Shown: positions 2,986-36,811, counted from the first letter of the stretch. The stretch is DNA of 64,000 bases from an uncultured Porphyromonadaceae bacterium (GCA_964512915.1 CAZEKJ010000002.1:152977-216976), one strand, 5' to 3'. The notes: generated by a model not told the origin, from the sequence alone. Numbers and translations are program-made.

Positions 2986-3094
2986 CTTAACTCAATGTCC
3001 GGATTTAGGTAGTAATTCCAAATCAGTTGAAAATCTTTTAACAAAGGACGCAGCGCTCGCGACTGAAACATCTACATCTATAAAAGAAAATTTC

Positions 3095-7122: not shown

Positions 7123-7644
7123 CTAAATTGCCACTGAATGCGATTTGGAAACATATTGGCAGGGACTCTTGATCAGCAAAGATTGGCCGGCTCCGTCAAT
7201 TCTTAGGATGACTTCTTTGGATCCTTTTCGGTTCACCACCTCAGCCGAGTAACCAGTCAGAGGGCCTTCGCAAAATACGACGAGGTCACCAGGATCAAAA
7301 CCTTCGTTAGTTACTTCAAAGCAAAGGTCCCCAGCAATAACCATTTTAATGGATTCGATTTTCTCATCCGGAACGGGACAGGGCTGGCCGCATATTGTGA
7401 TGTATCGAACAATGGACTTGTCCTGGAGGGCTTTGTCATATTCCCTCCAACTAACACGCACGAAAATGTAAGAAGGGAACAAGGGCTTCTCAATTAACTT
7501 CTTTCGATCGGACCACTGCCGGAATTGCCTTATTTTCGGCAAATATGCCTCAATTCCTACCATTTTAAGATACTCCTCTGCCTTGAATTCATGACATGCT
7601 TTAGTGTATAAAACATACCATCGATAGATTTTTGTAACCCACAT
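7123..7644 (-). CDS. UpxY-family (NusG-like) transcription antiterminator
   Basis: RWYVLYTKACHEFKAEEYL...YLPK is an NGN domain. The C-terminal GDLVVFCEGPLTGYSAEVV is a KOW motif. Confidence 0.75.
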   Translation of the reverse strand: MWVTKIYRWYVLYTKACHEFKAEEYLKMVGIEAYLPKIRQFRQWSDRKKLIEKPLFPSYIFVRVSWREYDKALQDKSIVRYITICGQPCPVPDEKIESIKMVIAGDLCFEVTNEGFDPGDLVVFCEGPLTGYSAEVVNRKGSKEVILRIDGAGQSLLIKSPCQYVSKSHSVAI

Positions 7645-7654
7645 GGATTCTGGT

Positions 7655-7921
7655 TTATTTGATTCTACTTTTCATGCAACATTCAGGTTTGACCAGTTCA
7701 GGAGGATCATCAACATCTTTTAATAGGTCAATACATTTGATATTTAGGTATTTACACAGTTTAAATAAGGTGTAAAGCTGAATAGAAATCTTCCCTTGTT
7801 CGATTCTTCCTATATGGATTCCAGTGTCAATAAGGACCTCAAATTGAGTTTTACCGGCTTTTTGCCGTGCCCACTTAATCTGTTCGGCGACTTCTCTATT
7901 AAAAGTATTTTGCATACCCAT
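7655..7921 (-). CDS. XRE-family helix-turn-helix regulator
   Basis: QIKWARQKAGKTQFEVLIDTGIHIGRIEQGKISIQLYTLFKLCKYLNI is a Cro/C1-type HTH. A truncated paralog lies at 52263-52394. Confidence 0.7.
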   Translation of the reverse strand: MGMQNTFNREVAEQIKWARQKAGKTQFEVLIDTGIHIGRIEQGKISIQLYTLFKLCKYLNIKCIDLLKDVDDPPELVKPECCMKSRIK

Positions 7922-8035
7922 TTCAACAAAAGAGTTAATCTCTCCTTCATATGGGTTAATATCTTATCTTAGCAAAAAGTTACCGCTCATCCAGAAATAT
8001 TTTTATATGCCAGAGTTAACGTAACTTTGTTCAGA

Positions 8036-8617
8036 ATGAAAAGGCAAGAGCTTAAAAGACTAACGGACCAGGAACTTCTTCACTTGATTCGCGAAAAGGA
8101 TAACAAAGCCTGTGGTTTTCTCTTTTTACGTCTAACAAAGTATTTTAGGAGGTATTTGAAACCCTGGACACGAGATGCTAGAGTAGCCAAATCACTTGCC
8201 ATTGAAGTGATTGCCATCCTTATAGAGATGCCTAAAGAGCCTGTTCTGAGATCAAAGCTTATCAATTTTTCAATTACCATTGGTAGGAATCAATGGTTAT
8301 TGATCCAGAGAAAGGAAAGTAGATTCGAGAATAGACCCAATTGGTTTTTTGATGAATTTCAGTCAATTGAAAATGTCCTTGAGCAGACCATGATTTCTGA
8401 AAAACACAAGTATGTTAACAACTGTCTTCAGCAGGTAAGTGAAAAGTGTAGAAAACTATTGTCACTGTTTTGTCAGGGTTTCAGTCCAGACGAAGTTTGT
8501 TCTGAATTCGACTATTCATCAAAGAAGGTTTACCAGGTTAAGAAATCAAAATGCATTGAAAGACTGAGATCAATTGTCATTTCTTCACCTGAATATCACG
8601 AGCTATTTGAATCTTGA
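8036..8617 (+). CDS. sigma-70 family (ECF-like) RNA polymerase sigma factor
   Basis: Region-2-like FSITIGRNQWLLIQRKE and region-4-like CRKLLSLFCQGFSPDEVCSEFDYSSKKVYQVKKSKCIERLR are present. ATG at 8036 is preferred over the TTG at 8027. Confidence 0.55.
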   Translation: MKRQELKRLTDQELLHLIREKDNKACGFLFLRLTKYFRRYLKPWTRDARVAKSLAIEVIAILIEMPKEPVLRSKLINFSITIGRNQWLLIQRKESRFENRPNWFFDEFQSIENVLEQTMISEKHKYVNNCLQQVSEKCRKLLSLFCQGFSPDEVCSEFDYSSKKVYQVKKSKCIERLRSIVISSPEYHELFES

Positions 8618-8629
8618 TGGGAGGAATAG

Positions 8630-9295
8630 ATGATGAACGAAGAAAAATTAAATAATGAGTTGATTAAAACTCTGATTGAAAATGAAAATAAAAGGGTGCA
8701 AATAAGAGAGACCCTAAGATTTGTTGAGGATGCCTCAAATAAGTATCTCTCGGGACAAAAGAGGCACCCTAAAATTACTTGGTTAGTCACTTCACTAACA
8801 ATTACTTCAGCTGCCATTCTGATTTTATCACTAACAGTCTTGCCTTCCATTATTCCTATTAATGCAGAGGATCAATTTCAAGCATTTCATAAGAAGTTTG
8901 ATGGAAACTTTGCTGTTAGAGGAGAAGTCGATATTACTCCGTGGGAGTCAGCTTATAATTTATATCAATCCGGGCAATTAAATGAGGCAAGTCAGTTGGC
9001 CGACTCTGTATTATCATCTTACCCTTTTGACCATAAGATGCTTTTCTTATCAGGCCTCATCAGCATTGAGCAAGGGGAATATGTTGCTGCTGCAAAGAGT
9101 TTTATAGCTACATCTGGATTAGGAGGATCTTATGAGGTCTATTCTCGATGGTACCTTGCCTTGATTTACCTGAAGCAACATAAGTATTCTGACTGCCGGG
9201 AAGAACTAAGAATATTAAAACAAATAGACAACAAAGAGCTCAGAACCAAGGTAGGTAAGCTTTACCGCAAGATCCGTTTTCGTATGGATAAATAA
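8630..9295 (+). CDS. single-pass membrane protein with TPR-like C-terminal domain (possible anti-sigma or partner)
   Basis: One TM segment (ITWLVTSLTITSAAILILSLTVL) is followed by helical-repeat sequence (AYNLYQSGQLNEASQLADSVL...YLALIYLKQHKYSDC). The gene lies 12 nt downstream of the sigma gene. Confidence 0.5.
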   Translation: MMNEEKLNNELIKTLIENENKRVQIRETLRFVEDASNKYLSGQKRHPKITWLVTSLTITSAAILILSLTVLPSIIPINAEDQFQAFHKKFDGNFAVRGEVDITPWESAYNLYQSGQLNEASQLADSVLSSYPFDHKMLFLSGLISIEQGEYVAAAKSFIATSGLGGSYEVYSRWYLALIYLKQHKYSDCREELRILKQIDNKELRTKVGKLYRKIRFRMDK

Positions 9296-11739
9296 CCCAA
9301 TCCGATCCCAATTCCTAAAAGGCAGAAACCAAATATTACAATCCAATGGCCCTTGGCACTCTCTTTTTGAGTATAGCAAACCACCCCTGCCCAATAAAAC
9401 GGATGATCCATCCCTGGGGGACAATTTCGGAGGTATTTTCTTTTCGCCTTCATTAATGCTTTCTCCGGTCGGTTGAATCTCAAATACTTATAATAGTACT
9501 GGGCAATCATTGAGGCTGATAAATCGGATGCTTCCCAAAGATTCTGAATGATGGTGCGACTCCCGGCTAGGGCAAATGCAAACCCGAGGGAAAGCAAGCC
9601 TTCCCCTTGATTTAATGGCCCATTCCCTGATGCGCAGGTGTTCAAATAGACATTGGTTCCCGATAATTGGTACCCAAGAATTTCATCTATGGAAATGCCC
9701 TTCAGTCCGGGTAAACAAACCATTTCAGTCTGAAGCGGCTTCTTGAAATTTACAAGAGCATGACCAGCAATATGGATATACTTAGCAGGATCAAGTGAGT
9801 TTTCTGAGAGAGCCCCTTGATCTAGGTTAAGAGTCGAAGATTTAATGAATAATTTGGAAATTCTATCCACTTCAGAAAACTGATTTTGTTGTCCTGATCT
9901 TGAGTCACAGGATAAGATTAGTAATTGGTTTTTAAGTTTAATCTTCTTGCTTAGTGATAAAAAAGGCATTGTTAAATACCTTACTTCCCTGCATATATTT
10001 CTATTTTTCACTTGATTATTGTTTGTTTGATCAACTCCTGAAACTAAAAGAGTCTCAAATGGAACTCCTAGTAAAACACCATCTGGATGAATTACCAATT
10101 TATTGATTTTATATGAATCATGTATTAAAAGTTTGAACAAGTCATTCTTTAAAATCTCTAAATATCTTTCTTTGTCATTTGAGTACAAGTTGTTTGGATT
10201 GGAAGATATTTCTGTTTTGAAGTATTTGATATTCTCTCTAAGAGCCCTATTTGCAGGAATGAGTTTATAGGTTAATTTTCCTTTTTCAACCTTAAACATT
10301 GCGAAGCACGAGTCTAGATCTTGATATCCCAGGTATATTTCTTTCGGTTTTAATTGTTTTTTCAAAAGTTTAAATAAATCAGCTTTATCTGTTTTTCTTT
10401 TAAGGTCCTCAAAATGTGTGACAATGATTTCTTCAGCCTGCTCAATTTTTCTTGATTGATTATAAATAGAATCAATTAATCTCAGTTCAACATTATTATT
10501 TAATTTTTTATATATTAGGTCAAGTCTTTTTTTATTTTCTTTTTGGTAGGAAATTATTGTGTCTGGTATACCGATTTGATAAAAGAATTCTTCTCTTTCA
10601 AAAAGTGAATTTAACGATAAAGATTTAGATTGGAGAGACCAATTAAAAGCTTGGAATAAGAATTTCTCATCTTTGGAATTTTCGTATAACTTCAAAGCAA
10701 CAAGAATTCCATAATTGTAAGCCCTTTTTGCCTTATCTGAAATAATGAATCTATTCTCATCTGAAGTAATAGAATGAGCAAGAAATTGAATCTCACCGAT
10801 AATTGAATGAAAAATCTCATAACCATCAATGAGTTTCGATGCTTCAATATATAATATCCCTAAATCGATTAAGCAATCTAGATATACAGTTTTATAAAGT
10901 CCACTATCATAAGATGTTAAAATTCTGTCATGATCTACCTCTTCTAATAATTCCTTGCATTCTTTATAGAGCTTAATGGATTGTTCATTGTTTTTTAGCT
11001 TCTTTTGGTTTCTTGCTAAAAAGAAGCAAGAAAGGGCTTTTTGATATGGTTCGACCCTACTACTGAAGGAAGTCTCAAGTGCCAGTTTAAAAATATTTGT
11101 AGCATCTTCTGGACCAGAGGTAATCTCAAGAGATAATCCTAATAGTCGAAGCTGATCATGCTCAAGATTTCCATTATTAATATAGCCCAGTCGTTCAATA
11201 AGTTCCGGAATAGAAGTGGAGTTATGATTCCTGATAGATAAAGCGAGTAAATTGCGCAATGCAGTTTCTATAAATAGTTTATTCTTAAATTTGATTGACT
11301 CACTCAGTAATTGGTTAAAGATTAGTTGCGCTGATTCATCATTATTACTGAGTAATTCTAGAACGCCAGATAGATTGACCGAATGTAAATACAAGTCATT
11401 GTCTTGGAACCACCTTCCATATTCTCTTGAAATGGTAGAGTAGTATCTTGAAAGTGAATATCTTCCTCGTTTTTGAAACACAAGAGCCTTATAAAGGCAT
11501 AGATAGCCTGTATATACTGAGTATATGTCAGGGTTGCGTTTCTCAAGGTTTTCATTTATTAGCGATAGAGTTTCGGTCAAGCGTCCCTGACTAAGCCTGT
11601 CCCTGATAACACATGTATTATGGTAAAGCGTATTCTCCGAGTAGAATCCTGATAAATGATTCTCTTGACCCATAGAAGAATTGATCAATAATGAAGTTAT
11701 TAAGTAGCTGGTTATCAAAGGAATTCCAAATATTGTCAT
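9262..11739 (-). CDS. TPR-repeat protein with C-terminal CHAT (caspase-like) protease domain and C-terminal TM anchor
   Basis: A long helical-repeat N-terminal half is followed by a CHAT His/Cys dyad context: YIHIAGHALVN and VYLNTCASGNGPLNQGEGLLSLGFAFALAG. The protein ends with the hydrophobic HWIVIFGFCLLGIGIGLGYL. Confidence 0.85.
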   Translation of the reverse strand: MTIFGIPLITSYLITSLLINSSMGQENHLSGFYSENTLYHNTCVIRDRLSQGRLTETLSLINENLEKRNPDIYSVYTGYLCLYKALVFQKRGRYSLSRYYSTISREYGRWFQDNDLYLHSVNLSGVLELLSNNDESAQLIFNQLLSESIKFKNKLFIETALRNLLALSIRNHNSTSIPELIERLGYINNGNLEHDQLRLLGLSLEITSGPEDATNIFKLALETSFSSRVEPYQKALSCFFLARNQKKLKNNEQSIKLYKECKELLEEVDHDRILTSYDSGLYKTVYLDCLIDLGILYIEASKLIDGYEIFHSIIGEIQFLAHSITSDENRFIISDKAKRAYNYGILVALKLYENSKDEKFLFQAFNWSLQSKSLSLNSLFEREEFFYQIGIPDTIISYQKENKKRLDLIYKKLNNNVELRLIDSIYNQSRKIEQAEEIIVTHFEDLKRKTDKADLFKLLKKQLKPKEIYLGYQDLDSCFAMFKVEKGKLTYKLIPANRALRENIKYFKTEISSNPNNLYSNDKERYLEILKNDLFKLLIHDSYKINKLVIHPDGVLLGVPFETLLVSGVDQTNNNQVKNRNICREVRYLTMPFLSLSKKIKLKNQLLILSCDSRSGQQNQFSEVDRISKLFIKSSTLNLDQGALSENSLDPAKYIHIAGHALVNFKKPLQTEMVCLPGLKGISIDEILGYQLSGTNVYLNTCASGNGPLNQGEGLLSLGFAFALAGSRTIIQNLWEASDLSASMIAQYYYKYLRFNRPEKALMKAKRKYLRNCPPGMDHPFYWAGVVCYTQKESAKGHWIVIFGFCLLGIGIGLGYLSIRKRILR

Positions 11740-11815
11740 GTAATATCTAGTTTAAGCGGTAACAATTATGATCGATAAGATACTATTCATCTGTAAATCC
11801 TTAAAATCTAAACTT

Positions 11816-11961
11816 ATGGAAAGTTATCAAGAGATTGACGAAAAAAACTGTTAGGGCTGAGTTTTACTGAAATGGTGATAATCAGAGGAGGCGATGGTGA
11901 AGAAACCTTGCCACCCCCTCCTCCACCGCCACCACCTCCAACCCCTGGAACCGGAGGCTAA
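11816..11961 (+). CDS. double-glycine-leader peptide precursor P1 with a decaproline core (out of frame as read at an A7 tract)
   Basis: The ATG 11816 frame reads MESYQEIDEKNC and then stops. The -1 frame from the A7 run (11841-11847) reads KKLLGLSFTEMVIIRGG-DGEETLPPPPPPPPPPTPGTGG with stop TAA 11959-11961. The gene lies directly upstream of a C39 ABC exporter. Confidence 0.55.
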
Positions 11962-11974
11962 TAAGTTGAAATGA

Positions 11975-12033
11975 GAAATCCGCCTAAGTAAAGACAGGGC
12001 TAGAACCTGTCGATACGAGGGCGGATCTTTTTA
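11975..12033 (+). terminator. two-tier hairpin plus T-tract after P1
   Basis: The outer stem AAATCCGCC...GGCGGAT encloses the inner stem GACAGG...CCTGTC and is followed by CTTTTT. The architecture matches the hairpin after P2. Confidence 0.45.
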
Positions 12034-12065
12034 CATCTAGAATTATGTTTAGAATATTAGCTTGA

Positions 12066-14255
12066 ATGAAGATTAGGTTTGTCAGACAATATGATTCCAG
12101 GGATTGCGGACCGGCATGCCTAAAGATGATAGCCGGCTATTTCGGTAAGGAATTCCCACTGCAGTTTCTACGTGAGAGGACCCACATTACAAAGAATGGG
12201 GTCAGCTTCCTTGGATTATATGATGCAGCTGAGAGCATCGGACTCAAGCCTGCCGGAGTGAAAGTTACATTCGATCAACTTGTTGCAGAGGTTCCGAAAC
12301 CGTGTATTGTTCATTGGAAGAAGAGGCATTTTGTTGTTGTTATTAAAGCCAGACAGAATTATGTCAGGGTTGCTGATCCAGCGCTGGGTTTTGTTAGATA
12401 CACCCCACTAGAGTTTAAAAAGAGTTGGATTTCAACAGTACATGAGGACAAGCCTATGGGGATGGGAATGATTCTTGACCCAACCCATGAGTTTTCTGAA
12501 AGGGTTGGGATGAAGACAGACCATAAAAAATCATTCGACTTCATTTTACAGTATTTGAATCCTTACAGAAAGCAACTTCTACAAGGATTGCTGTATTTGA
12601 TATTTGGATCGGCAACCCTACTGCTAATGCCGTATCTTTCAAAGTCTATTGTTGACAAAGGTTTATCCAATGATAGCCTGTCATTCATTGGCCTTGTTCT
12701 TATTGCCCAGTTTCTCTTGGTCATAGGTAAAACAGGCCTTGAGTATGTGCGATCCTGGCTTCTCCTTCATATAAGTTTGCGGGTTAATTTCCGGCTCCTT
12801 TCAGATTATCTCACTAAACTCATGAGGCTGCCCTTAGGTTTTTTTGAGACTAGACGCACAGGAGATATCTTACAACGTATCGGTGATCACAGCAGAATAG
12901 AAGCCTTTATTACCCAATCCGGATTGGGCTTCTTGTTTTCGGTTTTCAATATTTTGATTCTTGGTACTGCTTTGGGTTTATATAGTCTGCTCATACTTCT
13001 GGTTTTTACCGTTAGCGGATGTCTATACATTCTTTGGATCCGGCTTTTTTTGGCGAAAAGATCGGAACTCGACCACAGGAGATTTCAGGAACAATCTGAA
13101 AACCAGAACAACCTTATTCAGCTGATTTCAGGAGTGATGGAAATCCAGATTAATGCATGTCAGCGGTCGAAAAGAAGAACATGGGAAGCGATACAAACCC
13201 GGATATTAAGAACCCGTTTGGCCAGCCTGGCTCTTGCTCAAAAAATTCAATCCGGATCAATACTGATTAATGAAGCCAGGAACCTGATCATTACCTTTCT
13301 GGCTGCCCGGTTTGTTATAAATGGTCAAATTACCCTGGGAGAGATGTTTGCCATTCAATTCATTGTTGGACAATTAATTGGGCCGATAGAGCAGGTTGCA
13401 TCTTTTACTTATGGTTTACAGGATGCCCAGCTAAGCTTAGTAAGACTCTCAGAGGTTCATAATTATCCTGTTCATTTAACCAAGGATGAACAAAGCATAA
13501 TCAGTCTGCCTGAGGATAAAACCATTCGGGTCACAAATGTGACATTCCAATATGAAGGTCCACGATCTCCAAAAGTCCTTGACGATGTCACAATGGAAAT
13601 TCCTGTCAACAAAACTACTGCTATTGTTGGAGCAAGTGGCAGTGGTAAAACAACACTTATAAAACTGTTAATGGGGCTCTATCAACCAGCTGTTGGTGGC
13701 ATATCGGTTGGAGGCATCCCTATACACTTACTGGATCAGGGTTCGTATAGGGCGGCTTATGGTGCTGTTATGCAAAATGGTTATTTATTTTCAGATACGA
13801 TAGCAAATAACATTGGTCTGAGTGATCAACCGCTTGATCCGGTTCGTTTGACCAAGGCATGCAAAATCGCAAACGTGGAAGAGTTTCTGATCAATAATCC
13901 GATGGGGCACAATGCCGAAATCGGTCCTGAGGGTATGGGCCTAAGTCAAGGACAGAAACAACGGATTTTGATTGCCAGGGCGATATACAAAAATCCTGAG
14001 ATTCTGTTTTTTGATGAAGCAACAAATTCCCTTGATGCTAAGAATGAGAAAGTTATCCTTGAAAATCTGATTCCTTTTTATAAGGGACGAACGGCAGTAG
14101 TTGTTGCTCATCGCCTGAGCACAGTTATGAATGCAGATCAGATATTTGTGATGGACAACGGCAAGATAGTGGAAAGTGGAACCCATGATTCATTGGTCAT
14201 GGCTAGGGGCGTTTATTATAGCTTAGTTAAGAATCAAATTGAATTGGGACTATAA
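12066..14255 (+). CDS. peptidase-C39-domain ABC transporter (bacteriocin/peptide processing exporter, PCAT)
   Basis: The N-terminal YDSRDCGPACLKMI carries the C39 catalytic Cys. Six TM helices follow. The ATPase motifs are Walker A GASGSGKTT, signature LSQGQKQR, Walker B ILFFDEATNSLD and H-loop VVAHRL. Confidence 0.9.
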   Translation: MKIRFVRQYDSRDCGPACLKMIAGYFGKEFPLQFLRERTHITKNGVSFLGLYDAAESIGLKPAGVKVTFDQLVAEVPKPCIVHWKKRHFVVVIKARQNYVRVADPALGFVRYTPLEFKKSWISTVHEDKPMGMGMILDPTHEFSERVGMKTDHKKSFDFILQYLNPYRKQLLQGLLYLIFGSATLLLMPYLSKSIVDKGLSNDSLSFIGLVLIAQFLLVIGKTGLEYVRSWLLLHISLRVNFRLLSDYLTKLMRLPLGFFETRRTGDILQRIGDHSRIEAFITQSGLGFLFSVFNILILGTALGLYSLLILLVFTVSGCLYILWIRLFLAKRSELDHRRFQEQSENQNNLIQLISGVMEIQINACQRSKRRTWEAIQTRILRTRLASLALAQKIQSGSILINEARNLIITFLAARFVINGQITLGEMFAIQFIVGQLIGPIEQVASFTYGLQDAQLSLVRLSEVHNYPVHLTKDEQSIISLPEDKTIRVTNVTFQYEGPRSPKVLDDVTMEIPVNKTTAIVGASGSGKTTLIKLLMGLYQPAVGGISVGGIPIHLLDQGSYRAAYGAVMQNGYLFSDTIANNIGLSDQPLDPVRLTKACKIANVEEFLINNPMGHNAEIGPEGMGLSQGQKQRILIARAIYKNPEILFFDEATNSLDAKNEKVILENLIPFYKGRTAVVVAHRLSTVMNADQIFVMDNGKIVESGTHDSLVMARGVYYSLVKNQIELGL

Positions 14256-14256
14256 G

Positions 14257-15504
14257 ATGGCACTAACAGAAACATCTCCTGATCCTGAAATCCAGGAGCC
14301 GGACGAATTTGTGGGAGTAATCCCGAGTAAAATAGGTCGATGGGGTATCGGATTGTTGATTAGTATCCTAATCGTATCGATTGTTACACTGATCATTATC
14401 CTTTATCCGACTCACATCAGAGGCACCATGACAATCACACACGAGCAATCAGTCATACCGCTGGCAGCACGGTCTGAAGGATTTTTAGCTTTCTGTACTG
14501 CGAGCAACGGAGATACGGTGAGAGCCGGACAAATACTTTGTATTCTTGAAAGTTCAAGTGATCCTATCGAAGTTTTACAGATGGATTCACTTCTTGCCAT
14601 TCTGATGATTGAACAAACCGATCTTGAGACAACCAGCAGGTCAATAGCAGAACATCCATTCACCAACCTGGGGAATCTCAGCAGACCATATGCAAATCTT
14701 ATAACAGCAGCCGAAGAATACTTATCCTATTTGCAAAACAATTCAAGTTATACGAGAATAGCCAGTTATGCGACCCAAAGGAATGATCTGGAGAAGATAC
14801 TGGAGGATCAAAACCAGCTAATGGTTCTTTTAAGGCAAGAAGTAGATCTTAAGAAGGTTAGTCTGGAGAGAAATGTTTATTTACGGGATACGGGTGTTTT
14901 CACTCAAGTTGATTATGAAAAATCCAAATCCTTACTTATTGCCGCGGAAGGGGATTATCAGAAGGTACTGCTGGCTATCCGGCAAGGCGAAAAGGAGATC
15001 AATCAGACCAGCGGCTTGATAGACACTGAAGTCCGGGAATCGAAACTGAGTTTGGCACAAAAAGAAAATGGCCTCAGAGAGGCCATTATTAGCTTGTTTG
15101 GTATGGTTGAGGAATGGGAATTCAATTATGCAATCATTGCTCCAACTGAAGGCCAGGTGGCAATTAACCCAGGTATAATAACCAACAGATATATCAAGAA
15201 AGATCAAACGGTTATGTCCCTGCTACCATTGACACCTGGCTCTTTAATCGGCACAATGGTTCTACCCATAAAAGGGGCTGCCCGGATTACTGTTGGCCAA
15301 AAAGTGCTGATCCGCTTAAACGAATACCCTTATTTACAATTCGGTATTCTGAAGGGGTACATTGAAGAATTATCACCGGTTCCCATCAATGGTAACTACC
15401 TGGCCAGGGTAACATTCCCTGATTCCAACAACGCCCTGTTAGGCAAGACCATCCAGTTAAATCGCTTATTAACAGGAGAGGGCAGGGTGGTGGTGCGGTG
15501 GTGA
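14257..15504 (+). CDS. HlyD-family membrane fusion/secretion protein
   Basis: It has one N-terminal TM segment, a long coiled-coil middle and a beta-barrel C-terminal region. ATG 14257 lies 1 nt after the ABC stop codon. This is the usual PCAT partner. Confidence 0.8.
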   Translation: MALTETSPDPEIQEPDEFVGVIPSKIGRWGIGLLISILIVSIVTLIIILYPTHIRGTMTITHEQSVIPLAARSEGFLAFCTASNGDTVRAGQILCILESSSDPIEVLQMDSLLAILMIEQTDLETTSRSIAEHPFTNLGNLSRPYANLITAAEEYLSYLQNNSSYTRIASYATQRNDLEKILEDQNQLMVLLRQEVDLKKVSLERNVYLRDTGVFTQVDYEKSKSLLIAAEGDYQKVLLAIRQGEKEINQTSGLIDTEVRESKLSLAQKENGLREAIISLFGMVEEWEFNYAIIAPTEGQVAINPGIITNRYIKKDQTVMSLLPLTPGSLIGTMVLPIKGAARITVGQKVLIRLNEYPYLQFGILKGYIEELSPVPINGNYLARVTFPDSNNALLGKTIQLNRLLTGEGRVVVRW

Positions 15505-15544
15505 TTATGAAACTTTGATAAAAATATCTATTGTAATTCCCGAC

Positions 15545-15673
15545 TTATTTTTTTATTGGTTTCTTAATTGTTTCCACCGTTGTAGTTTTAGGATGTTTTT
15601 GGGCTTCTTTTACAGGGATAAACTTTCCACTTTCGGAATCTCTCCCAACCTTAACTGTTTTGGTTTTCGTCAT
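15545..15673 (-). CDS. small basic protein (42 aa), hypothetical
   Basis: The minus strand reads MTKTKTVKVGRDSESGKFIPVKEAQKHPKTTTVETIKKPIKK. It resembles small Lys-rich proteins common in Bacteroidota. It is below the ORF-track length cutoff and has no other support. Confidence 0.35.
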   Translation of the reverse strand: MTKTKTVKVGRDSESGKFIPVKEAQKHPKTTTVETIKKPIKK

Positions 15674-15826
15674 GGCTTAATTTTTTTAAAAGGTAAAAAA
15701 TAATACTTTATGATGATTTTAGTCTTCTACCTAATTATGAATATTAAAACCTATCGTTTCAATCGATAACAAATCTTAAAGTTAGAATATTAATGGTTAA
15801 AGATTCAGTTGTTTACTTAAAATGAA

Positions 15827-15976
15827 TTGCTATGGAAAAGTACAAAGAAACCGAAAAAAAAGTTTGAAGCTTTGAGTACCTCTCAAATGTTAAAAATTCG
15901 AGGTGGTGCTGGTATTGAGGTTTTTATAATTATCCCATCTCCTCTACCTCCATTACCACCTGGTGGCGGTGGCTGA
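15827..15976 (+). CDS. double-glycine-leader peptide precursor P2 with a Pro/Gly-rich core (start ambiguous, A8 tract)
   Basis: The frame reads ...KKPKKKFEALSTSQMLKIRGG-AGIEVFIIIPSPLPPLPPGGGG with stop TGA 15974-15976. The only in-frame start is TTG 15827. ATG 15832 (MEKYKETEKKV then stop) is offset by one nucleotide across the A8 run 15854-15861 and parallels the N-terminus of P1. Confidence 0.55.
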   Translation: MLWKSTKKPKKKFEALSTSQMLKIRGGAGIEVFIIIPSPLPPLPPGGGG

Positions 15977-15992
15977 TAATATAATATAGTGT

Positions 15993-16058
15993 GAAACCCA
16001 ACCATAACTTGTTTTGTCCTGGGGGAACAGGCAAATAAGCGGTTGGGTTTCCTTTTTT
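15993..16058 (+). terminator. two-tier hairpin plus T-tract after P2
   Basis: The outer stem GAAACCCAACC...GGTTGGGTTTC encloses the inner stem CCTG...CAGG and is followed by CTTTTTT. Confidence 0.45.
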
Positions 16059-16324
16059 GGGCTAAATGGTCAAGGGTTAAGCCCTTGGACCGTTTGATAG
16101 CATAGAAAAAGCGATTATGAACCAGTCTAGCAACACTCTTTTTAGCAATTATTATCGATTGTATCGGGACCCCAAGGTCGCCTTTATAACTACAAGAAAA
16201 CAAGGGAGTTATCCCAATTGTACTACTAGACTCGCCCCACAGCTGCCCCACAGGGAGTTGACCGTTAACTTCGTCGCAGATATCCTCCGGTTGTTGGATA
16301 GAGTAGTCTTGGCCTCAGTCCCCC

Positions 16325-16828
16325 CTATCTGGAATACATCAAATGGGCATACCGGTCTACGATAGACCGATTTGCTAAATCCGTTTGACCCGGTTGAATC
16401 TCAGGATTGGCTTTGACGACCTCATCGAACTTGCAGGAAAACCGCTTTTCAAAGTCCTGGATCAGGGAATCGGTTATTCTTTTACTGTTGAGCTGAGCTA
16501 ACAGATCCGATTTATCATTTAAGATGGTTTGATTAATCCTGGCCATCAAAATCCAAACATCCAGTTTCGTATAGGTATTCAGTTGGGCTTCCACTCTCTT
16601 CTCCTGAAATCTTTGATTTGATAGACGGAACACTGGTGCCGGTCGTTCCAAATCGGGTCTGGCCAGCTTGGGCTTCTGATTGCCTTTAACTGGTGTCAGC
16701 TCCATTTTTTTCTGGGATCGGCGGAAGTCCGACCGGCATTTATCGGAATCAAACCGTGATTTTAAACTTTTAGCGATATAGAGTTTTCCACAATAATCGC
16801 AGGTTCTGGTGTATCGTTTATCAGACAT
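16325..16828 (-). CDS. hypothetical protein with N-terminal zinc-ribbon-like CxxC...C motif
   Basis: MSDKRYTRTCDYCGKLYIAKSLKSRFDSDKCRSDF. No other family motif was recognised. The start is taken at the internal ATG 16828. Confidence 0.4.
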   Translation of the reverse strand: MSDKRYTRTCDYCGKLYIAKSLKSRFDSDKCRSDFRRSQKKMELTPVKGNQKPKLARPDLERPAPVFRLSNQRFQEKRVEAQLNTYTKLDVWILMARINQTILNDKSDLLAQLNSKRITDSLIQDFEKRFSCKFDEVVKANPEIQPGQTDLANRSIVDRYAHLMYSR

Positions 16829-17479
16829 AAAACCGATTTTATACCGAGCTAAATTACTAAATATTAGCATTTAAGCAAAAAATAAAATCGATTTAACGTG
16901 ATATTTTTAACTCAATCATTACCCGTAACAGGATTAGTTAAGGGATCCTGTATGAGCAATTTAACCATTGAAGAATGGAGTGATGAAAGAATATGAGAAT
17001 CCCAGCGAGAAGCAAATTGTGCAGGAGACCTAGTGTGCAAAGGAAGTAACAAGGTGTAAACGATAACGAGGATCTGGGAATCTCGTCACCCGAAATGCTC
17101 CTTGAAAAACGGCTGGTAGGCCATCGGCAAGGATAGACCGGTAGCCGATTTATTCAGTAGTATCGATATGAGTAATTCGATGAAGGTGTAGCGCCATTTC
17201 GTACTCGCTATAGGCCACGGATTACTTTTTTCACTTTTCTGCTTGAAGCCATTGTTTATTTTAAAAATTGACTCTAATTTCAACTCCCATAAAACTTTAC
17301 CGGATCCGACCGGCCACTAAATAAGCAGGAAACTAATGAGATCGGTCCTTGTATGTGACTGGGAGGGCGAAGCTGTAGAATGCCGGATGAAGGAAGCCGG
17401 GCGAAAATGAGTTAAGAGATTCGAATGAAGAGTATCGAATTTCGATGTAATAGAATCAGGGAATGCCCGGGCCGAATGG

Positions 17480-17673
17480 ATTGATAACCCCAACCGGCCA
17501 CATTTCTACTTCATCGACAAACAAGCCAGACCAGGTTGAATCTTTTGGAAAATGGCCTGATTCTCCGTTTAGAGACTGAATGTGCATCTATATCAGATAA
17601 TGCCTTTTACCTACATGTGGCAACCTGTGTCACTCTGGTGGTTAAAAGCCCGATTGATGCACACCCTAAATGA
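17480..17673 (+). pseudogene. tyrosine recombinase, degenerate C-terminal remnant
   Basis: It reads ...TRLNLLENGLILRLETECASISDNAFYLHVATCVTLVVKSPIDAHPK. This aligns by eye with THLLEQGLNIVTLKELLGHADITTTMIYLHVAQCPLIKPHSPLD of the intact recombinase at 22798-23715. Confidence 0.45.
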
Positions 17674-17680
17674 AGCGGTT

Positions 17681-18827
17681 ATGGAAATTCAACGATATCC
17701 ATTTGACCTGGGGGAACTGCTGATCCAGCATCGGGACTACTTCAAAACCACTTATCGGCTTAGTCCCGGCCAATAGAAAGTGTTTGCAGATCTGACCCGT
17801 TGCCGGACTTCAGCGCTGAGCGGACATCAGGATGAATGCGATCAATGTGGACACCAGTAGCATTCCAACAACTCCAGACGGAACCGCGACTGCCCCAAAT
17901 GTCAGTATGTAAAACAAGTGGAATGGATCGACCGGCTGAAGCACAACTTACCACCAACCCGGTATTTTCATTTGGTGTTTACCATTCCTCAGGAACTTCA
18001 CCGGAACTTCTATATCAACCAAAAGGTTTGCTATGATCTGCTCTTCCGGTCAGCCACCCTGGCCATCCAGCATGCTGCAAAAGGGCGTTCCGGATTAGGG
18101 GCCACCGTTGGCGGAGTATCCGTGCTCCACACCTGGGGCCAGGCACTCACTTATCATCCGCATATTCACCTGATCATTCCGGCAGGAGGTCCATCGGAAG
18201 ACCGGATGGAATGTGTGGCTTCGCCTAAAAAGTTCTTCCTTCCGGTTAAGGTACTGAGTCGGATTTTCCGTGGTATTTTATCCAAGAATCTGGAAGAAGT
18301 CATCCATATGGGGGATGTTTTTCTTCCCGTTTATTTTTTCTGGAAGGAGTTTAAAGACAAGTTATATCAGAAAAACTTGAATGTGTATGCCAAATCGCTT
18401 CTCTCCGGACCGGACAGGGTGATTGAATATCTCGGAAGATACACGCACCGGGTAGCCATCTCCAGCAGCTGGATTCTGGGTGTGGAGAATGATCAGATTA
18501 CCTTCAAAATAAAAGATTATGGTACTGACAATTTCACATCAACCAGGACGCTACCGGTGGTTGAGTTTATCCGCCGGTTTTTTCAGCACGTGCTTGCCTG
18601 GCGGATTTTATAAAATCCGGTACTTCGGATTTTTGTCGCTTTCCCAGTCAAAGGAATTTGTCGGCCTGGTATTCGAACTGCTGGAAAAGAGCCCGTTTCT
18701 TCAACTGTTTGTTAGTTTAAATGGAATGGAAATCTACTAGGAAATCAGCGGGAAACGGCAGAGGCTTTGTCCGGTTTGCCAGTCCAGCATTATGCATCCG
18801 TATCATTACAACTTCTCTTCCGATTGA
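17681..18827 (+). pseudogene. IS91-family (HUH/Y2) transposase, multiple stops and frameshifts
   Basis: HLVFTIPQELH...VSVLHTWGQALTYHPHIHLIIPAGG...YLGRYTHRVAIS are present, with in-frame stops in the N-terminal zinc-binding part (CDQCGHQ then stop) and a frame change near 18600. Confidence 0.75.
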
Positions 18828-19157: not shown

Positions 19158-19184
19158 GTGGTAACTTTAAAAAACAGACAACTT

Positions 19185-21362
19185 ATGAATGTTATTGAAA
19201 TCCAACTTCGGAATTGCTTCGGAATAGGGAAGCTTGACCACAAATTCGATTTTGGTCAATTAAATACTGGTTCTTTTCTAATTTATGCGCCAAACGGGAC
19301 CATGAAAACCTCATTTGCGAAGACATTAGACCTCATTTCAAAAAATGACGTCAAAGTAATGCCCAGTGACAGAGTTTATGATAACAGACCTACGACATAT
19401 AGGATTCTTGCAGACGGTATCTCGATTCTCAGTGAGTCGATTTTAGTAGTTAACGCAGAAGATAACACATACGACACTTCAACAAAAATAAGTTCATTTA
19501 TTGCAAGTAAAGACTTAAAGAAAAAGTATGATGAAATATATTCTGAATTAGACAGCAAAAAAGGCGAATATGTAAAGAAACTAAAGCAATTGTCACAAAG
19601 TACAGACTGTGAAACTGAATTTATTAATGTATATAGTCTGTCGCCAAAGGATACCTTTTTCGAACTACTTTTGAGGATTTCAAAGTCTTTATTAACCAAA
19701 CCAGACTCATATAGCTTCCGCTATAATGATATTTTCGATAAAAAGGGGAATGTGAAAAAGTTCCTAGATAAGAATCAGTCACTTTTAAAACAATACATTA
19801 GTAGCTACAATGAACTATTAACTAAGTCAAAGTTCTTCAAGAGTTCAGACAATTCCTTTGGAACTTTCCAAGCAAATGAACTCCTAAAGTCTACTGAGGA
19901 TAATTCATATTTTGATGCAGGGCATAAATTCACTCTAAGTGACAACTTAGAAATTAAGTCAGCCGAAGAACTACAGCTATTAGTCCAAAAGGAAATAACA
20001 ACCATTGTTAATGACGAAAAATTAAAAAAGTCTTTTGACCAAGTTGACAAGTCTATTGGATCAAACATCGAACTCAGGTCATTTAAAAGTGCAATTGAAA
20101 AAGAAAACCTTTTACTCGTCGAGCTAGAAGAATATGAAGATTTTAGAAAAAAAGTATGGTTAAATTATATTTCTACCTTTGCAAAGGAAACGTTAGAACT
20201 CGTTCAATTTTACGAAAGCAAAAAGGCCGAAATAGAGAAGATAATCAAAGAGGCAAAGAAGGAATTTACAATTTGGGAAGAGATCATTAAAACATTCAAC
20301 GAAAGGTTTTTCGTTCCTTTTGATATTAAACTTGTTAATCAAGAGGACGTTGTTCTAAAAGAAGAGACGGCAAATCTTGAATTTGATTATAGAGATCCCA
20401 ACCAAGCACCAGTCAGGAAGGACAAAAACTCTCTCCTTTCAATACTGAGCAAAGGGGAACAACGTGCATTTTACATTCTTCAATTATTATTCGATATTGA
20501 ATCTAGAAACCAACTAAATCAAAGTACTTTATTAATCTTAGATGACATTGCTGATTCTTTTGATTATAAAAACAAATATGCAATTATTGAGTACATAAAA
20601 GAACTGCATCACAATCCAACTTTCAAGCTAATAATACTTACCCACAATTTCGATTTTTATAGGACCGTTGCCTCAAGATTATCATTGAATTGGGATGCAG
20701 CTTATATGGTAGTTAAAAACGACAATAGAGAAATTACATTATTACAAGGTCGATATAGAAAAGACGTATTTACCAATTTTAAACAACATCTTTCTGATCA
20801 AAAAGTGTTTATAAGTATTATCCCATTTGTGAGAAATCTTATTGAATATACTGAGAACAGCGAAAGTGCCAGCTATGAATTACTGACGGCTTGCCTACAT
20901 TTAAAGGCCAACACAAGTACAATTACCTGTGCAAGCATTCTCAATTTAATACATACAAATTTTTCTACTACAAGTGGTCAAAGCATTGCTTTTGGTGCAA
21001 AGCACATAAAAGATTTGATATTCGAAACCGCGGATTCGATTGACCAGGAAAATCCAGTAAATGAAATTTTGCTTGAAAATAAAATAGCATTGTCTATGGC
21101 AATTCGTCTTAAGGCAGAAGAATATATGATGGATAAGATTCCCAATTCTGGCACTTTAGTCATAACGTCAAATCAGACTTCGGAATTGTTAAGGCATTTT
21201 AAAGCTGTGAATTCTGATAAGTCTACATTGACAATTTTAGAACGGGTTAATTTAATGACTCCTGAGAATATTCATGTAAATGCTTTTATGTACGAGCCAT
21301 TAATTGATATTTCAGTTTTCCATTTAGTTGACTTGTATAGAAGAGTAAAACAACTAATATAA
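19185..21362 (+). CDS. ABC-type ATPase of the AAA_13 (RloC/PrrC N-terminal-like) kind with a long coiled-coil insert
   Basis: It has a P-loop IYAPNGTMKTSFAKTL, about 350 residues of Lys/Glu-rich helical insert, an ABC-signature-like LSKGEQRAFYILQL and Walker B LLILDDIADSFD. ATG 19185 is preferred over GTG 19158. No nuclease motif was identified with certainty in the C-terminal third. Confidence 0.7.
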   Translation: MNVIEIQLRNCFGIGKLDHKFDFGQLNTGSFLIYAPNGTMKTSFAKTLDLISKNDVKVMPSDRVYDNRPTTYRILADGISILSESILVVNAEDNTYDTSTKISSFIASKDLKKKYDEIYSELDSKKGEYVKKLKQLSQSTDCETEFINVYSLSPKDTFFELLLRISKSLLTKPDSYSFRYNDIFDKKGNVKKFLDKNQSLLKQYISSYNELLTKSKFFKSSDNSFGTFQANELLKSTEDNSYFDAGHKFTLSDNLEIKSAEELQLLVQKEITTIVNDEKLKKSFDQVDKSIGSNIELRSFKSAIEKENLLLVELEEYEDFRKKVWLNYISTFAKETLELVQFYESKKAEIEKIIKEAKKEFTIWEEIIKTFNERFFVPFDIKLVNQEDVVLKEETANLEFDYRDPNQAPVRKDKNSLLSILSKGEQRAFYILQLLFDIESRNQLNQSTLLILDDIADSFDYKNKYAIIEYIKELHHNPTFKLIILTHNFDFYRTVASRLSLNWDAAYMVVKNDNREITLLQGRYRKDVFTNFKQHLSDQKVFISIIPFVRNLIEYTENSESASYELLTACLHLKANTSTITCASILNLIHTNFSTTSGQSIAFGAKHIKDLIFETADSIDQENPVNEILLENKIALSMAIRLKAEEYMMDKIPNSGTLVITSNQTSELLRHFKAVNSDKSTLTILERVNLMTPENIHVNAFMYEPLIDISVFHLVDLYRRVKQLI

Positions 21363-21638: not shown

Positions 21639-22814
21639 TTAATTGAAAGCTTCTGGATATTGGCCCGTATATGAGCCATCCGGAGCCCTGATACGAGGTA
21701 GTTCCCGGATTACCACCATTCGTCCGGTTTTGCACACCGGGCATTGGCAAGGATTAACGCCCGTGAGCCTTTCGAAGCGTTGCAGGGCGGTCTCCAAGGG
21801 TTTTTCGCGGTTGATCAAGGTTTCAACATCGGGCTTTTCTTCCGGCATAAACCGCAACTCCAGATGGCGTTTGGTAGTATGATTATAAACGCCATAATAC
21901 CTGATTTTCACAAACCGGGCGGGCAGAATATGCTGGGTAAACCGGCGCAGGAACTCCATTCCATCGAGGGTTACCGGCTTTTTAACCGCTCCGTCCCGAT
22001 AATCTTTAGCTATGAAGGTCACCTTTCCGCCAGCTATGTCCAAAATGCGCTGGTTTGTGATCGCTACCCGGTGCGTGTATTGCCCGAGGTATTTTACCAC
22101 GTGATGGGCACTGGCCAGAGAAGGTTCGCAGTTTACTACCCAACGGGTGTTGTATGCCTGTTGAACCTTGTCGTTGAACAGCGACAGTTCATTTTGCTTT
22201 CGTAAAGCTCGCTTCAGGCTGTCGAGGAATCTGCCCTTAAAGGCATCACTCAGTTGATGGACCGGATACAGATACTTGCCCGAATGGCCGATGTTCTTCC
22301 ATTGTCCATCAAGGGTATATCCGGCAGCCGGAACAATACAGTGGATGTGTGGGTGTAATGAAAGGTTTTGACCCCAGGTGTGCAGCACTGCCACGACCCC
22401 GCTTTCAACACCAAAGTGGGAGTATCCGAAGGCTCTCAGCGTATTCCAGACGGCAACAAACAGCAGGTTGTAGAAAACACTTTGGTTGTGCAGGCAAACG
22501 GCATTCAAATGGTGGGGAACCGTGAACACAACGTGGTAATGCTTCACGGGCAGGGTTTTCTGCATCAGGTCATCGATCCAGAATGCCTGTTTTGCAGCCT
22601 GACATTTGGGGCAGTGCCTGTCGCCACAGCTGTTATAACTGTAGCGCACCGTGCCACAAGAGTCGCACACTTCCTCATGTCCACCAAGAGCTGCGGTACG
22701 GCAGATCGCGATCTTTCGCAGAACCTTTATTTGAATGGGCGTTAGTTTGACGTTGGAAAGCAGATTTGTACCGAAAAGGGTTACCGCATCCGCCAGTTCA
22801 AACCTTGTTCGCAT
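21639..22814 (-). CDS. IS91-family (HUH/Y2) transposase
   Basis: An N-terminal Cys cluster (CDSCGTVRYSYNSCGDRHCPKCQ) is followed by HYHVVFTVPHHLN, AVLHTWGQNLSLHPHIHCIVPAAG and YLGQYTHRVAITNQRI. Confidence 0.9.
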   Translation of the reverse strand: MRTRFELADAVTLFGTNLLSNVKLTPIQIKVLRKIAICRTAALGGHEEVCDSCGTVRYSYNSCGDRHCPKCQAAKQAFWIDDLMQKTLPVKHYHVVFTVPHHLNAVCLHNQSVFYNLLFVAVWNTLRAFGYSHFGVESGVVAVLHTWGQNLSLHPHIHCIVPAAGYTLDGQWKNIGHSGKYLYPVHQLSDAFKGRFLDSLKRALRKQNELSLFNDKVQQAYNTRWVVNCEPSLASAHHVVKYLGQYTHRVAITNQRILDIAGGKVTFIAKDYRDGAVKKPVTLDGMEFLRRFTQHILPARFVKIRYYGVYNHTTKRHLELRFMPEEKPDVETLINREKPLETALQRFERLTGVNPCQCPVCKTGRMVVIRELPRIRAPDGSYTGQYPEAFN

Positions 22815-30776: not shown

Positions 30777-31328
30777 ATGGCAATATTAACAAGAGGACAA
30801 TTTGCATCGATTGCTCAAACCAAAGCCGGGACAAGAGGACTTCGTGGCATCGTGAATGAGAGTAGAATGTTTTCAAAAGCAACTTCAATTACAAGCATTT
30901 TTCTTTCTCATTCACATACCGACAAAGACGTAATTGAACAAGCTAAAATTTTCTTTGAAAATTTAGGTATAAGCGTTTATGTCGACTGGGCAGACAAAAC
31001 AATGTCTGAAAGCACGAACGGAGAAACTGCACAAAAAATAAAAAAGCAAATCATTAACGGCAACGACAAATTTGTTTTGTTGGCGACAAATAATGCTGTT
31101 TCATCAAAATGGTGTAATTGGGAAGTTGGAATAGCAGACCCATTTAAACTTGCGAATAAAAAAATCGCATTACTGCCATTAGCAGACAACAGTGGTAATT
31201 GGAATGGAAACGAATACTTGCAAATTTATCCACGAATAGAAAGGAGTTCAACAAACTTGAATGAATACTACGTTTGGTATCCTGATGGAACTTTAGAAAC
31301 TATCTCAACTTGGTTAAACAGAAAATAA
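30777..31328 (+). CDS. stand-alone TIR-domain protein
   Basis: SIFLSHSHTDKD (strand A), ISVYVDW, and KFVLLATNNAVSSKWCNWEVG with the conserved W..E glutamate. The stop abuts the next start (taaATG at 31326-31331). Confidence 0.7.
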   Translation: MAILTRGQFASIAQTKAGTRGLRGIVNESRMFSKATSITSIFLSHSHTDKDVIEQAKIFFENLGISVYVDWADKTMSESTNGETAQKIKKQIINGNDKFVLLATNNAVSSKWCNWEVGIADPFKLANKKIALLPLADNSGNWNGNEYLQIYPRIERSSTNLNEYYVWYPDGTLETISTWLNRK

Positions 31329-33073: not shown

Positions 33074-33084
33074 TAATTACAATA

Positions 33085-33804: not shown

Positions 33805-33806
33805 CC

Positions 33807-35660: not shown

Positions 35661-35736
35661 TAAATAAGGCTTCGTATAATACTCCCTGAAATTCATGCCA
35701 CTGGTTAAGTTTAAAAACAACGATTAAATTTATCCA

Positions 35737-36660: not shown

Positions 36661-36674
36661 AATTTAAAATATAT

Positions 36675-36749: not shown

Positions 36750-36811
36750 CATTTTTTAGTTGTATGACAGAAATAGAAATAAGAAATAGCCATGAGTAAA
36801 TTAAAATAAAA

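Follow-up and report, generated by a model that had tools for sequence, protein, structure and literature searches.

Two small genes, P1 and P2, were analysed in a 64,000-nucleotide stretch of DNA from an uncultured Porphyromonadaceae bacterium (GCA_964512915.1 CAZEKJ010000002.1:152977-216976; hereafter the window, 39.9% G+C), in which they flank an intact 729-aa ABC exporter with a C39 peptidase domain and a 415-aa HlyD-type adaptor. Both belong, as precursor genes, to a Bacteroidales family of double-glycine-leader peptides that has not been described before and is of the 'RGG-DG' Pro/Thr-rich type. We propose, with a probability of about 0.5, that the members of this family are exported signal peptides coupled to a sensor formed by an extracytoplasmic function (ECF)-like sigma factor, an anti-sigma-like tetratricopeptide repeat (TPR) membrane protein and a TPR-CHAT protease, and that their production is off in this genome. 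The peptide family and its coupling to the sigma/TPR/CHAT set are new here, the individual parts being of known kinds.

Leaders, cores and family of P1 and P2

The two leaders end in ..LSFTEMVIIRGG (P1) and ..LSTSQMLKIRGG (P2), the P2 frame as a whole reading ..KKKFEALSTSQMLKIRGG-AGIEVFIIIPSPLPPLPPGGGG, and both display the features of double-glycine leaders, namely a length of about 15-30 residues, hydrophobic positions at around -4, -7 and -12, an acidic or polar residue at -8 and a terminal GG. As the first-pass annotation had described, they share the motif LS..(E/Q)M..IRGG and are followed by Cys-free cores of 22 residues ending in GG, and P1 contains ten consecutive Pro codons at 11911-11940, which make a dependence of its expression on elongation factor P a reasonable inference. 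The predicted unmodified cores have average masses of 2104.3 Da (P1) and 2098.5 Da (P2) and the two carry net charges of -3.2 and -1.2; they are divergent from each other, that of P2 being hydrophobic. P1 and P2 can be aligned over about 300 nt, and as this alignment includes the upstream region and the terminator, P2 can be regarded as an old duplicate of the whole unit. No positional homologue of P2 occurs in L037, the contig with the closest exporter relative, and an exact look-up of the 181-aa neighbour protein, aimed at another assembly spanning P2, returned nothing on record. Terminator-like hairpins follow both genes (Table 1); a strong terminator after the precursor is the usual design where a highly expressed precursor is located upstream of its exporter.

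A word-indexed profile search yielded 46 peptides from outside the window, all annotated as 'hypothetical' and including Thr-rich forms such as ..NVRGG-DGEETNTTTSTTEGEDEDIIL. With an alignment of 21 sequences as query, HMMER was run exhaustively on 1.84 billion representative proteins and gave 44 clusters at E <= 1e-3, among them a single false positive (P0176, a 2399-aa RTX-like repeat protein that matched by ten weak repeats and was rejected). The family size is about 45-90 sequence clusters, all unannotated and all from Bacteroidales or metagenomes. Members consist of a leader of about 26 residues, ME.Y..I..KK..LS..EM..[VI]RGG, with predicted cleavage after the GG, and an acidic, Cys-free core of 20-27 residues that begins with DG and is Pro-rich (or Thr-rich), with conserved ends (DG...; ...DIIL or ...GG) around a variable middle. 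A hidden Markov model (HMM) built from the 46 outside peptides, without window sequences, was used to scan the window's 1809 frames between stops (minimum length 20 aa). It found only the frames of P1 and P2 (Table 1), a result well beyond chance expectation, and the next best frame scored 0.72. Both frames match the family in the leader and in the start of the core; in a column-wise alignment with 19 outside members, R-G-G is invariant. The run of ten prolines (P10) in P1 does not define the wider family, which has Thr-rich and Pro-poor members.

Several relatives of the window subtype are intact in a single frame, e.g., MEKYEEIGGKKFEVLNLTEMLHVRGG followed by DGGESIINPPPPPPPPPPLP, P0213 (MEKYEEIGGKKFKVLNLTEMSHVRGG-DGGETIIIPTPPPPPPPPLPGGGG) and P0215/P0217 (MEKYEEIGGKKFEVLNLTEMLHVRGG-DGGES(I/N)(I/N)NPPPPPPPPPPLP). 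P0213 and P0215-P0218 join a window-like N-terminus to cores with runs of 8-11 prolines, P0197 and P0214 contain runs of 10-11 prolines, and P0206, P0198, P0192 and P0209 end in GG. One Bacteroidales metagenome-assembled genome (locus-tag prefix WC865) encodes both the DIIL-type P0158 and the MEKY/P10-type P0215, accession MFA5815768.1, in separate places. A small open reading frame (ORF) is also located upstream of the exporter at related loci: L040 of a sister lineage has MERSNLSSMMVANLDKYEMLNVRGG-DGIDTPPPPPVKTGIEEDIIL, close variants occur in L038, L041 and L043, and L037 begins at the contig edge with ..GEEIVIPPPPPPPPPPEPGTGG and a stop. Between L038 and L040 the differences at the three codon positions number 10/10/29, and over the 16 codons of P10-x-PGTGG, P1 and L037 differ by 11 synonymous changes and 1 non-synonymous change, P10 being retained. 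As differences between orthologs fall mostly at third codon positions, the peptide frames must have been translated and selected. The first-pass annotation had made its reading depend on conservation of these frames at homologous loci, and there they are kept, with mostly synonymous or third-position change.

No Pfam or NCBIfam model matched the peptides. Rfam gave no credible RNA family over 7600-16400, so that the small frames do not represent any riboswitch or leader RNA of a known type. All 24 metagenome DNA matches to the pattern PPPPxPGTGG-stop were unrelated (23 of them in high-GC DNA), and no further P1-type locus was found in this way. On a metagenome contig of 40% G+C (L059, 3257-3289, minus strand), a 127-aa frame has a Pro-rich tail ..LPPPPPGGAPPPPPPGTGVPPPPPPGTGG that ends in PGTGG but lacks a GG leader and is probably unrelated. 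As far as our literature searches show, Pro-rich GG-leader peptides have not been described, nor has a C39 exporter linked to CHAT and an ECF sigma factor. The sequences define an unannotated small-protein family whose members are missed or truncated by gene callers.

The exporter and its adaptor

During export, the C39 domains of peptidase-containing ABC transporters (PCATs) cut after the GG, and the bridge to an outer-membrane channel is formed by HlyD-type adaptors. The window exporter scores with Peptidase_C39 (1.3e-32), ABC_membrane (3.2e-30) and ABC_tran (4.7e-26) in Pfam, aligns over its full length with PCAT1 (4RY2, 3e-93) and ComA (8HF7, 1e-78), and has an intact catalytic Cys motif (DSRDCGPACL, QYDSRDCGPACL). 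By these features, P1 and P2 lie next to an exporter with a competent C39 domain, as expected for precursors with GG leaders, and the full-length transporter and HlyD-type adaptor reported between the two genes are indeed present. The adaptor is 49% identical to that of L037. Relatives of the PCAT are numerous in Bacteroidales, the best non-self match being 70% identical (L037), followed by many at 51-58%. A scan of species-representative genomes retrieved distant ABC transporters only (28% identity to Streptococcus and similar) and no useful synteny. Between the adaptor gene and P2, on the minus strand at 15545-15673, there is a 42-aa ORF for a Lys-rich soluble protein (MTKTKTVKVGRDSESGKFIPVKEAQKHPKTTTVETIKKPIKK) without a family match, which is kept at the same position in L037 as MPKTKIVKIGRDAGTGKFIPVKEAEKRPKTTTIETIKKPIKK and is the only conserved small neighbour.

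Frame breaks at poly(A) tracts

The first-pass annotation had implied intact small ORFs. Neither gene, however, forms an uninterrupted frame from start codon to core, the two parts being offset by -1 in P1 and by +1 in P2 at tracts of seven and eight A, respectively. In P1, the frame opened by ATG 11816 (MESYQEIDEK..) is terminated after 12 codons at 11852-54. The leader/core frame is closed upstream by a TGA at 11836-38, and its first canonical start, ATG 11872 (MVIIRGG...), would provide a 7-residue leader only. In P2, the junction is an A8 tract (15854-15861), where A7 would restore the ORF, and the leader/core frame holds an in-frame TTG at 15827. Of the earlier interpretation, the canonical GG leaders beside a C39 exporter and HlyD thus remain, but P1 as sequenced cannot make a full leader.

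The N-termini of the intact relatives match the ATG frames of the window, and their continuations match its core frames; across the P2 junction, MEKYKETEKK-FEAL corresponds to MEKYEEIGGKKFEVL of P0215/P0217. Because intact relatives join the two parts in this way, the true precursors are MESYQEIDEKK-LLGLSFTEMVIIRGG-core and MEKYKETEKK-FEALSTSQMLKIRGG-core, from which the window copies differ by one A each, P1 being one short and P2 having one extra. A sequencing artefact as the source of the frame breaks was rejected, as uninterrupted frames of 150 aa or more contain 34 of the 50 homopolymer runs (A/T of at least 7 or G/C of at least 6), and as an independent 4-kb metagenome contig (L036), identical over 11133-15133 save two end mismatches, carries the same A7.

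Production of P1 and P2 is therefore probably off in this genome, by reversible phase variation or by early decay, two states that sequence alone does not separate. Both lesions are changes of a single nucleotide in A7/A8 tracts, and neither the remaining genes of the module nor the rest of the peptide frames show damage, which is in favour of phase variation. That the genes are instead plain pseudogenes of a decaying cassette, with fixed loss-of-function frameshifts at mutational hot spots and no product at all, is somewhat unlikely but has several observations on its side. Both genes are out of frame compared to their intact relatives, the locus is flanked by insertion sequence (IS) and integrase genes and transposase fragments, the CHAT and TPR proteins have 825 aa and 221 aa in the window, compared to about 1000 and about 360 aa in the sister lineage, and the metagenome DNA scan gave no further P1-type relatives. 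On the other hand, the ORFs for PCAT, HlyD, CHAT (with its dyad motifs present), TPR and sigma are all intact, the peptide frames are free of stops beyond the tract change, P1 retains P10-x-PGTGG under synonymous change, the tract changes are of a revertible kind, and P2 retains its in-frame TTG. Low-level synthesis of P2 from this TTG is possible; alternative initiation is conceivable for P2 only. In an annotation of this genome, both genes should be listed as disrupted or phase-variable and not as functional peptides.

A conserved neighbourhood with shared promoter-like elements

The gene order sigma, TPR, CHAT (on the opposite strand), peptide, PCAT, HlyD is found in the window and in nine sister loci (L038, L040-L043 and L045-L048). 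In P1 and at those nine loci, the peptide gene is immediately upstream of PCAT-HlyD and divergent from TPR-CHAT/TPR/sigma, P2 being located downstream of HlyD. The sister loci have queA, RNase P RNA and DAHP synthase flanks in common, from which the flanks of the window differ. Between the window and the sister loci, the sigma and CHAT proteins are 20-30% identical, the TPR proteins have almost no detectable similarity and the exporters are 54-58% identical. As the proteins are so far apart and the flanks differ, the linkage has outlasted deep divergence.

The window sigma-like protein matches TIGR02985 (1.1e-6) and reaches 27.7 bits with TIGR02937, compared to a cutoff of 42.9 bits that the sigma proteins at the same position in sister loci pass at 51-52 bits; a PDB sequence search with the window protein gave no match. 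The sigma gene is followed directly, here and in all sister loci, by the gene for the TPR protein, which has one hydrophobic segment at about residues 51-75, preceded by about 50 N-terminal residues, and may act as an anti-sigma factor. The CHAT protein contains motifs typical of a His-Cys dyad (IHIAGH at 655, LNTCASG at 699) and hydrophobic segments at residues 1-19 (signal-like) and about 799-818 (a probable C-terminal membrane anchor), and its gene is divergent from P1.

Two side observations concern the sister loci. In L040, a bacterial class A RNase P RNA gene (2328-2687, 259.6 bits) immediately precedes the sigma gene, about 500 nt upstream of it, and the same sequence was recognized by eye in L038, L041, L043 and L045. 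In addition, the anti-sigma-like protein of L040 (3427-4521) has a cytoplasmic region of about 190 residues in which a motif similar to (Q/E)xD(I/V)(M/L)(A/S)(L/F)R.(Q/K)L(N/E)(R/E)I occurs three times; this motif is absent from the much shorter TPR protein of the window.

There are exactly two copies of the bipartite 28-nt pattern TATCTTATC-N10-GTTACCGCT in the 64-kb window, one upstream of the sigma-like gene and one within the CHAT-P1 intergenic region (Table 1). Each of the 18-kb loci L038, L040, L041 and L043 contains exactly two copies of a 12-mer, GGGTTACCTTTT, one shortly before the sigma start and the other about 70 nt before the start of the peptide gene, and both copies are followed by a GGATCAA or GGTATTAA box. 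L045 has GGGTTACCTTTT before the peptide gene and a one-mismatch copy before the sigma gene. A GTTACC core is common to the elements of the window and of the sister lineage, where it also precedes the sigma genes. With putative -35 and -10 parts, the elements fit an ECF-type promoter that is under autoregulation and is used by the peptide or CHAT genes as well. The link to the neighbouring sigma/TPR/CHAT set, offered as a suggestion in the first-pass annotation, is thus supported by conserved synteny and shared cis-elements.

Table 1. Positions of the peptide frames, neighbouring genes and putative control elements in the window.
Feature	Position	Strand	Remarks
Bipartite element TATCTTATC-N10-GTTACCGCT, upstream of sigma-like gene	7960..7987	+	28-nt pattern
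Divergent ECF-like sigma factor	8027..8617 (probable ATG 8036)	+	weak matches to 11 NCBIfam sigma models
Single-pass membrane TPR protein, anti-sigma-like, 221 aa	8630..9295	+	TPR_16 9e-5
TPR-CHAT caspase-like protease, 825 aa	9262..11739	-	Pfam CHAT 1.5e-24
Second TATCTTATC-N10-GTTACCGCT copy, 76-bp CHAT-P1 intergenic region	11755..11782	-	oriented toward CHAT
P1 start-codon frame MESYQEIDEKNC-stop (N-terminal leader part)	11816..11854	+	N-terminus matches intact relatives of MEKYEEIGGKKF... type
P1 leader/core frame RKKLLGLSFTEMVIIRGG / DGEETLPPPPPPPPPPTPGTGG-stop	11839..11961	+	outside-peptide HMM E 6e-6; stop 11959-61
P1 A7 tract at Lys-Lys codons, junction of both frames	11841..11847	+	A8 would restore ORF
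Terminator-like hairpin and U-tract after P1, before exporter	11978..12026	+	-31.7 kcal/mol, z = -5.7
PCAT	12066..14255	+	Pfam domains and structure matches
HlyD-type membrane fusion (adaptor) protein	14257..15504	+	TIGR01843 1.2e-15, below family cutoff; N-terminal transmembrane segment
P2 leader/core frame from in-frame TTG, MLWKSTKKPKKKFEALSTSQMLKIRGG / AGIEVFIIIPSPLPPLPPGGGG-stop	15827..15976	+	outside-peptide HMM E 8e-4; stop 15974-76
P2 start-codon frame MEKYKETEKKV-stop	15832..15867	+	11 codons; stop 15865-67
Terminator-like hairpin and U-tract after P2	15993..16051	+	-28.2 kcal/mol, z = -2.9

Proposed function and alternatives

In the proposed mechanism, the C39 domain of the PCAT would remove the leader, and the PCAT would export the core together with the HlyD-type adaptor. 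The released core would act as an extracytoplasmic signal, sensed by the TPR domains of the anti-sigma-like protein and/or by the periplasmic TPR-CHAT protease. The CHAT protease would then act on the anti-sigma-like protein, and the ECF-like sigma factor, once freed, would drive its own operon and the peptide/CHAT genes, resulting in an autoinduction loop. In the genome studied here, this loop would be silent as a consequence of the frameshifts, which may be reversible.

Several points weigh against this proposal. The shared element in the window points to CHAT and not to P1, and no sigma-type element in the orientation of P1 or P2 was found in the window. The nine sister loci represent one clade, as their flanking genes are common to all, and therefore amount to one or two independent observations of linkage and not to nine. 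A homologue search with the window CHAT protein gave only seven distant matches; in their contexts, as in L073-L075 from other Bacteroidota, CHAT is located beside an ECF sigma factor and a partner protein, with neither peptide nor PCAT. The triad of sigma factor, partner and CHAT is thus the more general unit, to which the peptide-exporter pair is a Bacteroidales addition; as not all such triads have the peptide as an input, it might be a mere output of the regulon. A signal function also requires the 2-kDa peptide to be back in the periplasm, by a route that is unexplained, and an outer-membrane channel gene is absent from the locus. Finally, both precursor genes are broken here, so that the module may be non-functional in this organism.

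A more far-reaching version is that the peptides are quorum-sensing autoinducers in Bacteroidota, exported by PCAT/HlyD and bound by TPR domains, upon which CHAT clips the anti-sigma factor and the sigma factor amplifies the peptide, sensor and exporter genes, with the poly(A) tracts rendering the pheromone phase-variable. This version is speculative and on balance doubtful; if true, subpopulations could listen without speaking. To our knowledge, no peptide-based cell-cell signalling is known in Bacteroidota, and none was found in the literature. Loci of this type set a candidate ligand, an exporter and a sigma/anti-sigma/CHAT sensor side by side, and their conserved promoter-like element could be used as a reporter, so that the question is testable in relatives with intact genes.

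A role as antimicrobial peptides similar to class II microcins or bacteroidetocins, with sigma/TPR/CHAT as mere regulators or unrelated neighbours, is distinctly unlikely. A GG leader combined with a PCAT and a membrane fusion protein is the standard class II microcin export route, and bacteroidetocins are encoded near a PCAT (PMC12219008). The two paralogous peptides of the window also have divergent cores, that of P2 being hydrophobic, and the window locus sits among mobile elements. However, the cores of the family comprise 20-27 residues with net charges of -1 to -8 and lack Cys, and those of the window (about 2.1 kDa, net charge -1 to -3), which had already been judged to be unlike class II bacteriocins, are not toxin-sized. 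No small membrane immunity ORF is located beside the peptides, nor is there any conserved small ORF with a transmembrane segment; the conserved small neighbour is the soluble Lys-rich 42-aa protein on the other strand. In addition, the locus of the sister lineage lies in synteny on the chromosome, its core ends are conserved, and the peptide and sigma genes have a cis-element in common. As the cores are tiny, acidic and Cys-free and an immunity gene is absent, a toxin role is less likely than a signal role.

It is very unlikely that P1 and P2 are precursors of peptides synthesized ribosomally and modified after translation (RiPPs), the cores being modified or processed either by an enzyme encoded elsewhere or by CHAT itself, which would act in the periplasm as a clan CD transpeptidase or maturase. 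Clan CD peptidases do include transpeptidases, and core ends are conserved around a variable middle. In addition, export by GG leader and PCAT is common for RiPPs (PMC10885120). However, in agreement with the first-pass annotation, no modifying enzyme was found by Pfam within about 8 kb (window ORFs examined from 96 to 26850), and precomputed Pfam annotation of the sister loci likewise contained no RiPP-modifying enzyme, whereas a RiPP cluster would include one. Besides lacking Cys, the cores offer few other residues that are obvious targets of modification, and the co-occurrence of CHAT with sigma/anti-sigma pairs in peptide-free loci ties it to signalling and not to maturation.

Programmed recoding, by which full precursors would be made at a set low rate through a -1 shift on A_AAA_AAC in P1 and a +1 shift or transcriptional slippage on A8 in P2, is highly improbable: the P1 heptamer, which we take to be a canonical X_XXY_YYZ slippery site, is in phase with the ATG frame, -1 is the shift needed and the stop is two codons on, and a hairpin 3' of the P2 A8 is more stable than shuffled controls (z = -3.2), but intact relatives carry the same junction in one frame, P1 and P2 need opposite shifts, the heptamer is in phase for P1 only, the fold downstream of it is not significant (z = -0.8), and A7/A8 tracts are short for efficient polymerase slippage.

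Other genes of the window

The surroundings of the module differ from those of the sister loci, which have housekeeping flanks. Five genes on the same strand at 30777-35660 encode TIR, TIR, SLOG (LD_cluster3, 8.7e-61), ThsB-like TIR and a TIR-NUDIX fusion, and this run looks like an anti-phage NAD/nucleotide-signalling defence cluster. Further defence-type genes at 38292-40033 and 44112-47761 encode a protein with a GmrSD N-terminal domain, followed by a RiboL-PSP HEPN protein, and a DNA methylase with an 841-aa fusion of a protein kinase and an ORC-Cdc6-like ATPase. In view of these genes at 30777-47761, the peptide module borders a defence island. This is reminiscent of the sigma/anti-sigma pair DdvS/DdvA of Myxococcus xanthus, which regulates a defence island.

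Genes of mobile elements around the locus comprise an rve integrase (2155-2985), a fragmented IS91-type Y2 transposase (17463-18613), an intact IS91-type transposase beside a tyrosine recombinase (21639-23715) and an IS66 transposase fragment (28645-29235). A 734-aa protein with weak SMC_N/ABC-ATPase similarity (19158-21362) is possibly the ATPase of a defence system. The window also encodes a 771-aa bacterial ROCO protein (23924-26239; LRR, Roc GTPase, COR-A, COR-B) and two DUF5128 six-bladed beta-propeller proteins of unknown function (2975-4342 and 49448-50626).

Comparison with known systems

P1 and P2 are similar to the precursors of the streptococcal ComC/ComAB and BlpC/BlpAB systems and of PCAT1/CtA in having a GG leader with Leu/Met/Val or Ile at the hydrophobic positions and Glu/Gln at -8, an adjacent ABC exporter with a catalytic C39 domain, and a precursor gene that forms a separate, terminator-bounded unit upstream of the exporter. 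A short unmodified core that acts as a signal, as proposed here, would follow the ComC/BlpC model. The present system differs in its Gram-negative Bacteroidales host, the HlyD-type adaptor, the acidic Pro/Thr-rich core and the candidate sensor, which is an ECF-like sigma factor with a TPR membrane protein and TPR-CHAT instead of a histidine kinase and response regulator.

With class II microcins and bacteroidetocins, the peptides share the GG leader, export by PCAT and membrane fusion protein and a Gram-negative producer. Both of these are toxins, the microcins having about 5-10 kDa and adjacent immunity genes and the bacteroidetocins <100 aa and a 15-residue leader (PMC12219008; for bacteroidetocins citing Coyne et al. 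2019). In contrast, the leader here has about 26 residues, the core of about 2.1 kDa is acidic, and there is no immunity gene. The Pro-rich antimicrobial peptides apidaecin, oncocin and Bac7 are likewise short, linear and Cys-free; they are of animal origin and strongly cationic with Arg-Pro motifs, whereas the cores described here are acidic with uninterrupted Pro runs.

A PCAT and a CHAT-family protease also meet in heterocyst differentiation of Nostoc, where HetF, a CHAT-family protease, belongs to the same developmental pathway as the PCAT HetC. A regulatory peptide is the presumed cargo of HetC (PMC10986499). With its PatS-type peptides, this pathway resembles the present locus in employing a PCAT in a Gram-negative organism and a regulatory peptide rather than a toxin. 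Its genes, however, do not form a single linked cassette; HetC, whose substrate is unknown, contains an additional cyclic-nucleotide-binding domain, and no ECF sigma factor is involved.

The nearest precedent is DdvS/DdvA, which combines an ECF sigma factor, the counterpart of the candidate ECF-like sigma factor of the window, with a single-pass membrane partner and an extracytoplasmic TPR-CHAT part with a His-Cys dyad, as the window locus also appears to do. DdvA is a transmembrane anti-sigma factor with a periplasmic TPR-CHAT region that has been proposed to be a signal-activated site-1 protease, its activating signal being unknown according to the same study (PMC11506125). Such fused proteins have been reported from Myxococcota and one Comamonas species only (PMC11506125). 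In the window, the corresponding functions would be divided between two proteins of 221 aa and 825 aa, as the anti-sigma-like protein has TPRs only and TPR-CHAT is separate, with its own signal-like N-terminus and C-terminal anchor. In addition, and unlike in DdvS/DdvA, a candidate ligand, the predicted exported peptide, is encoded next door.

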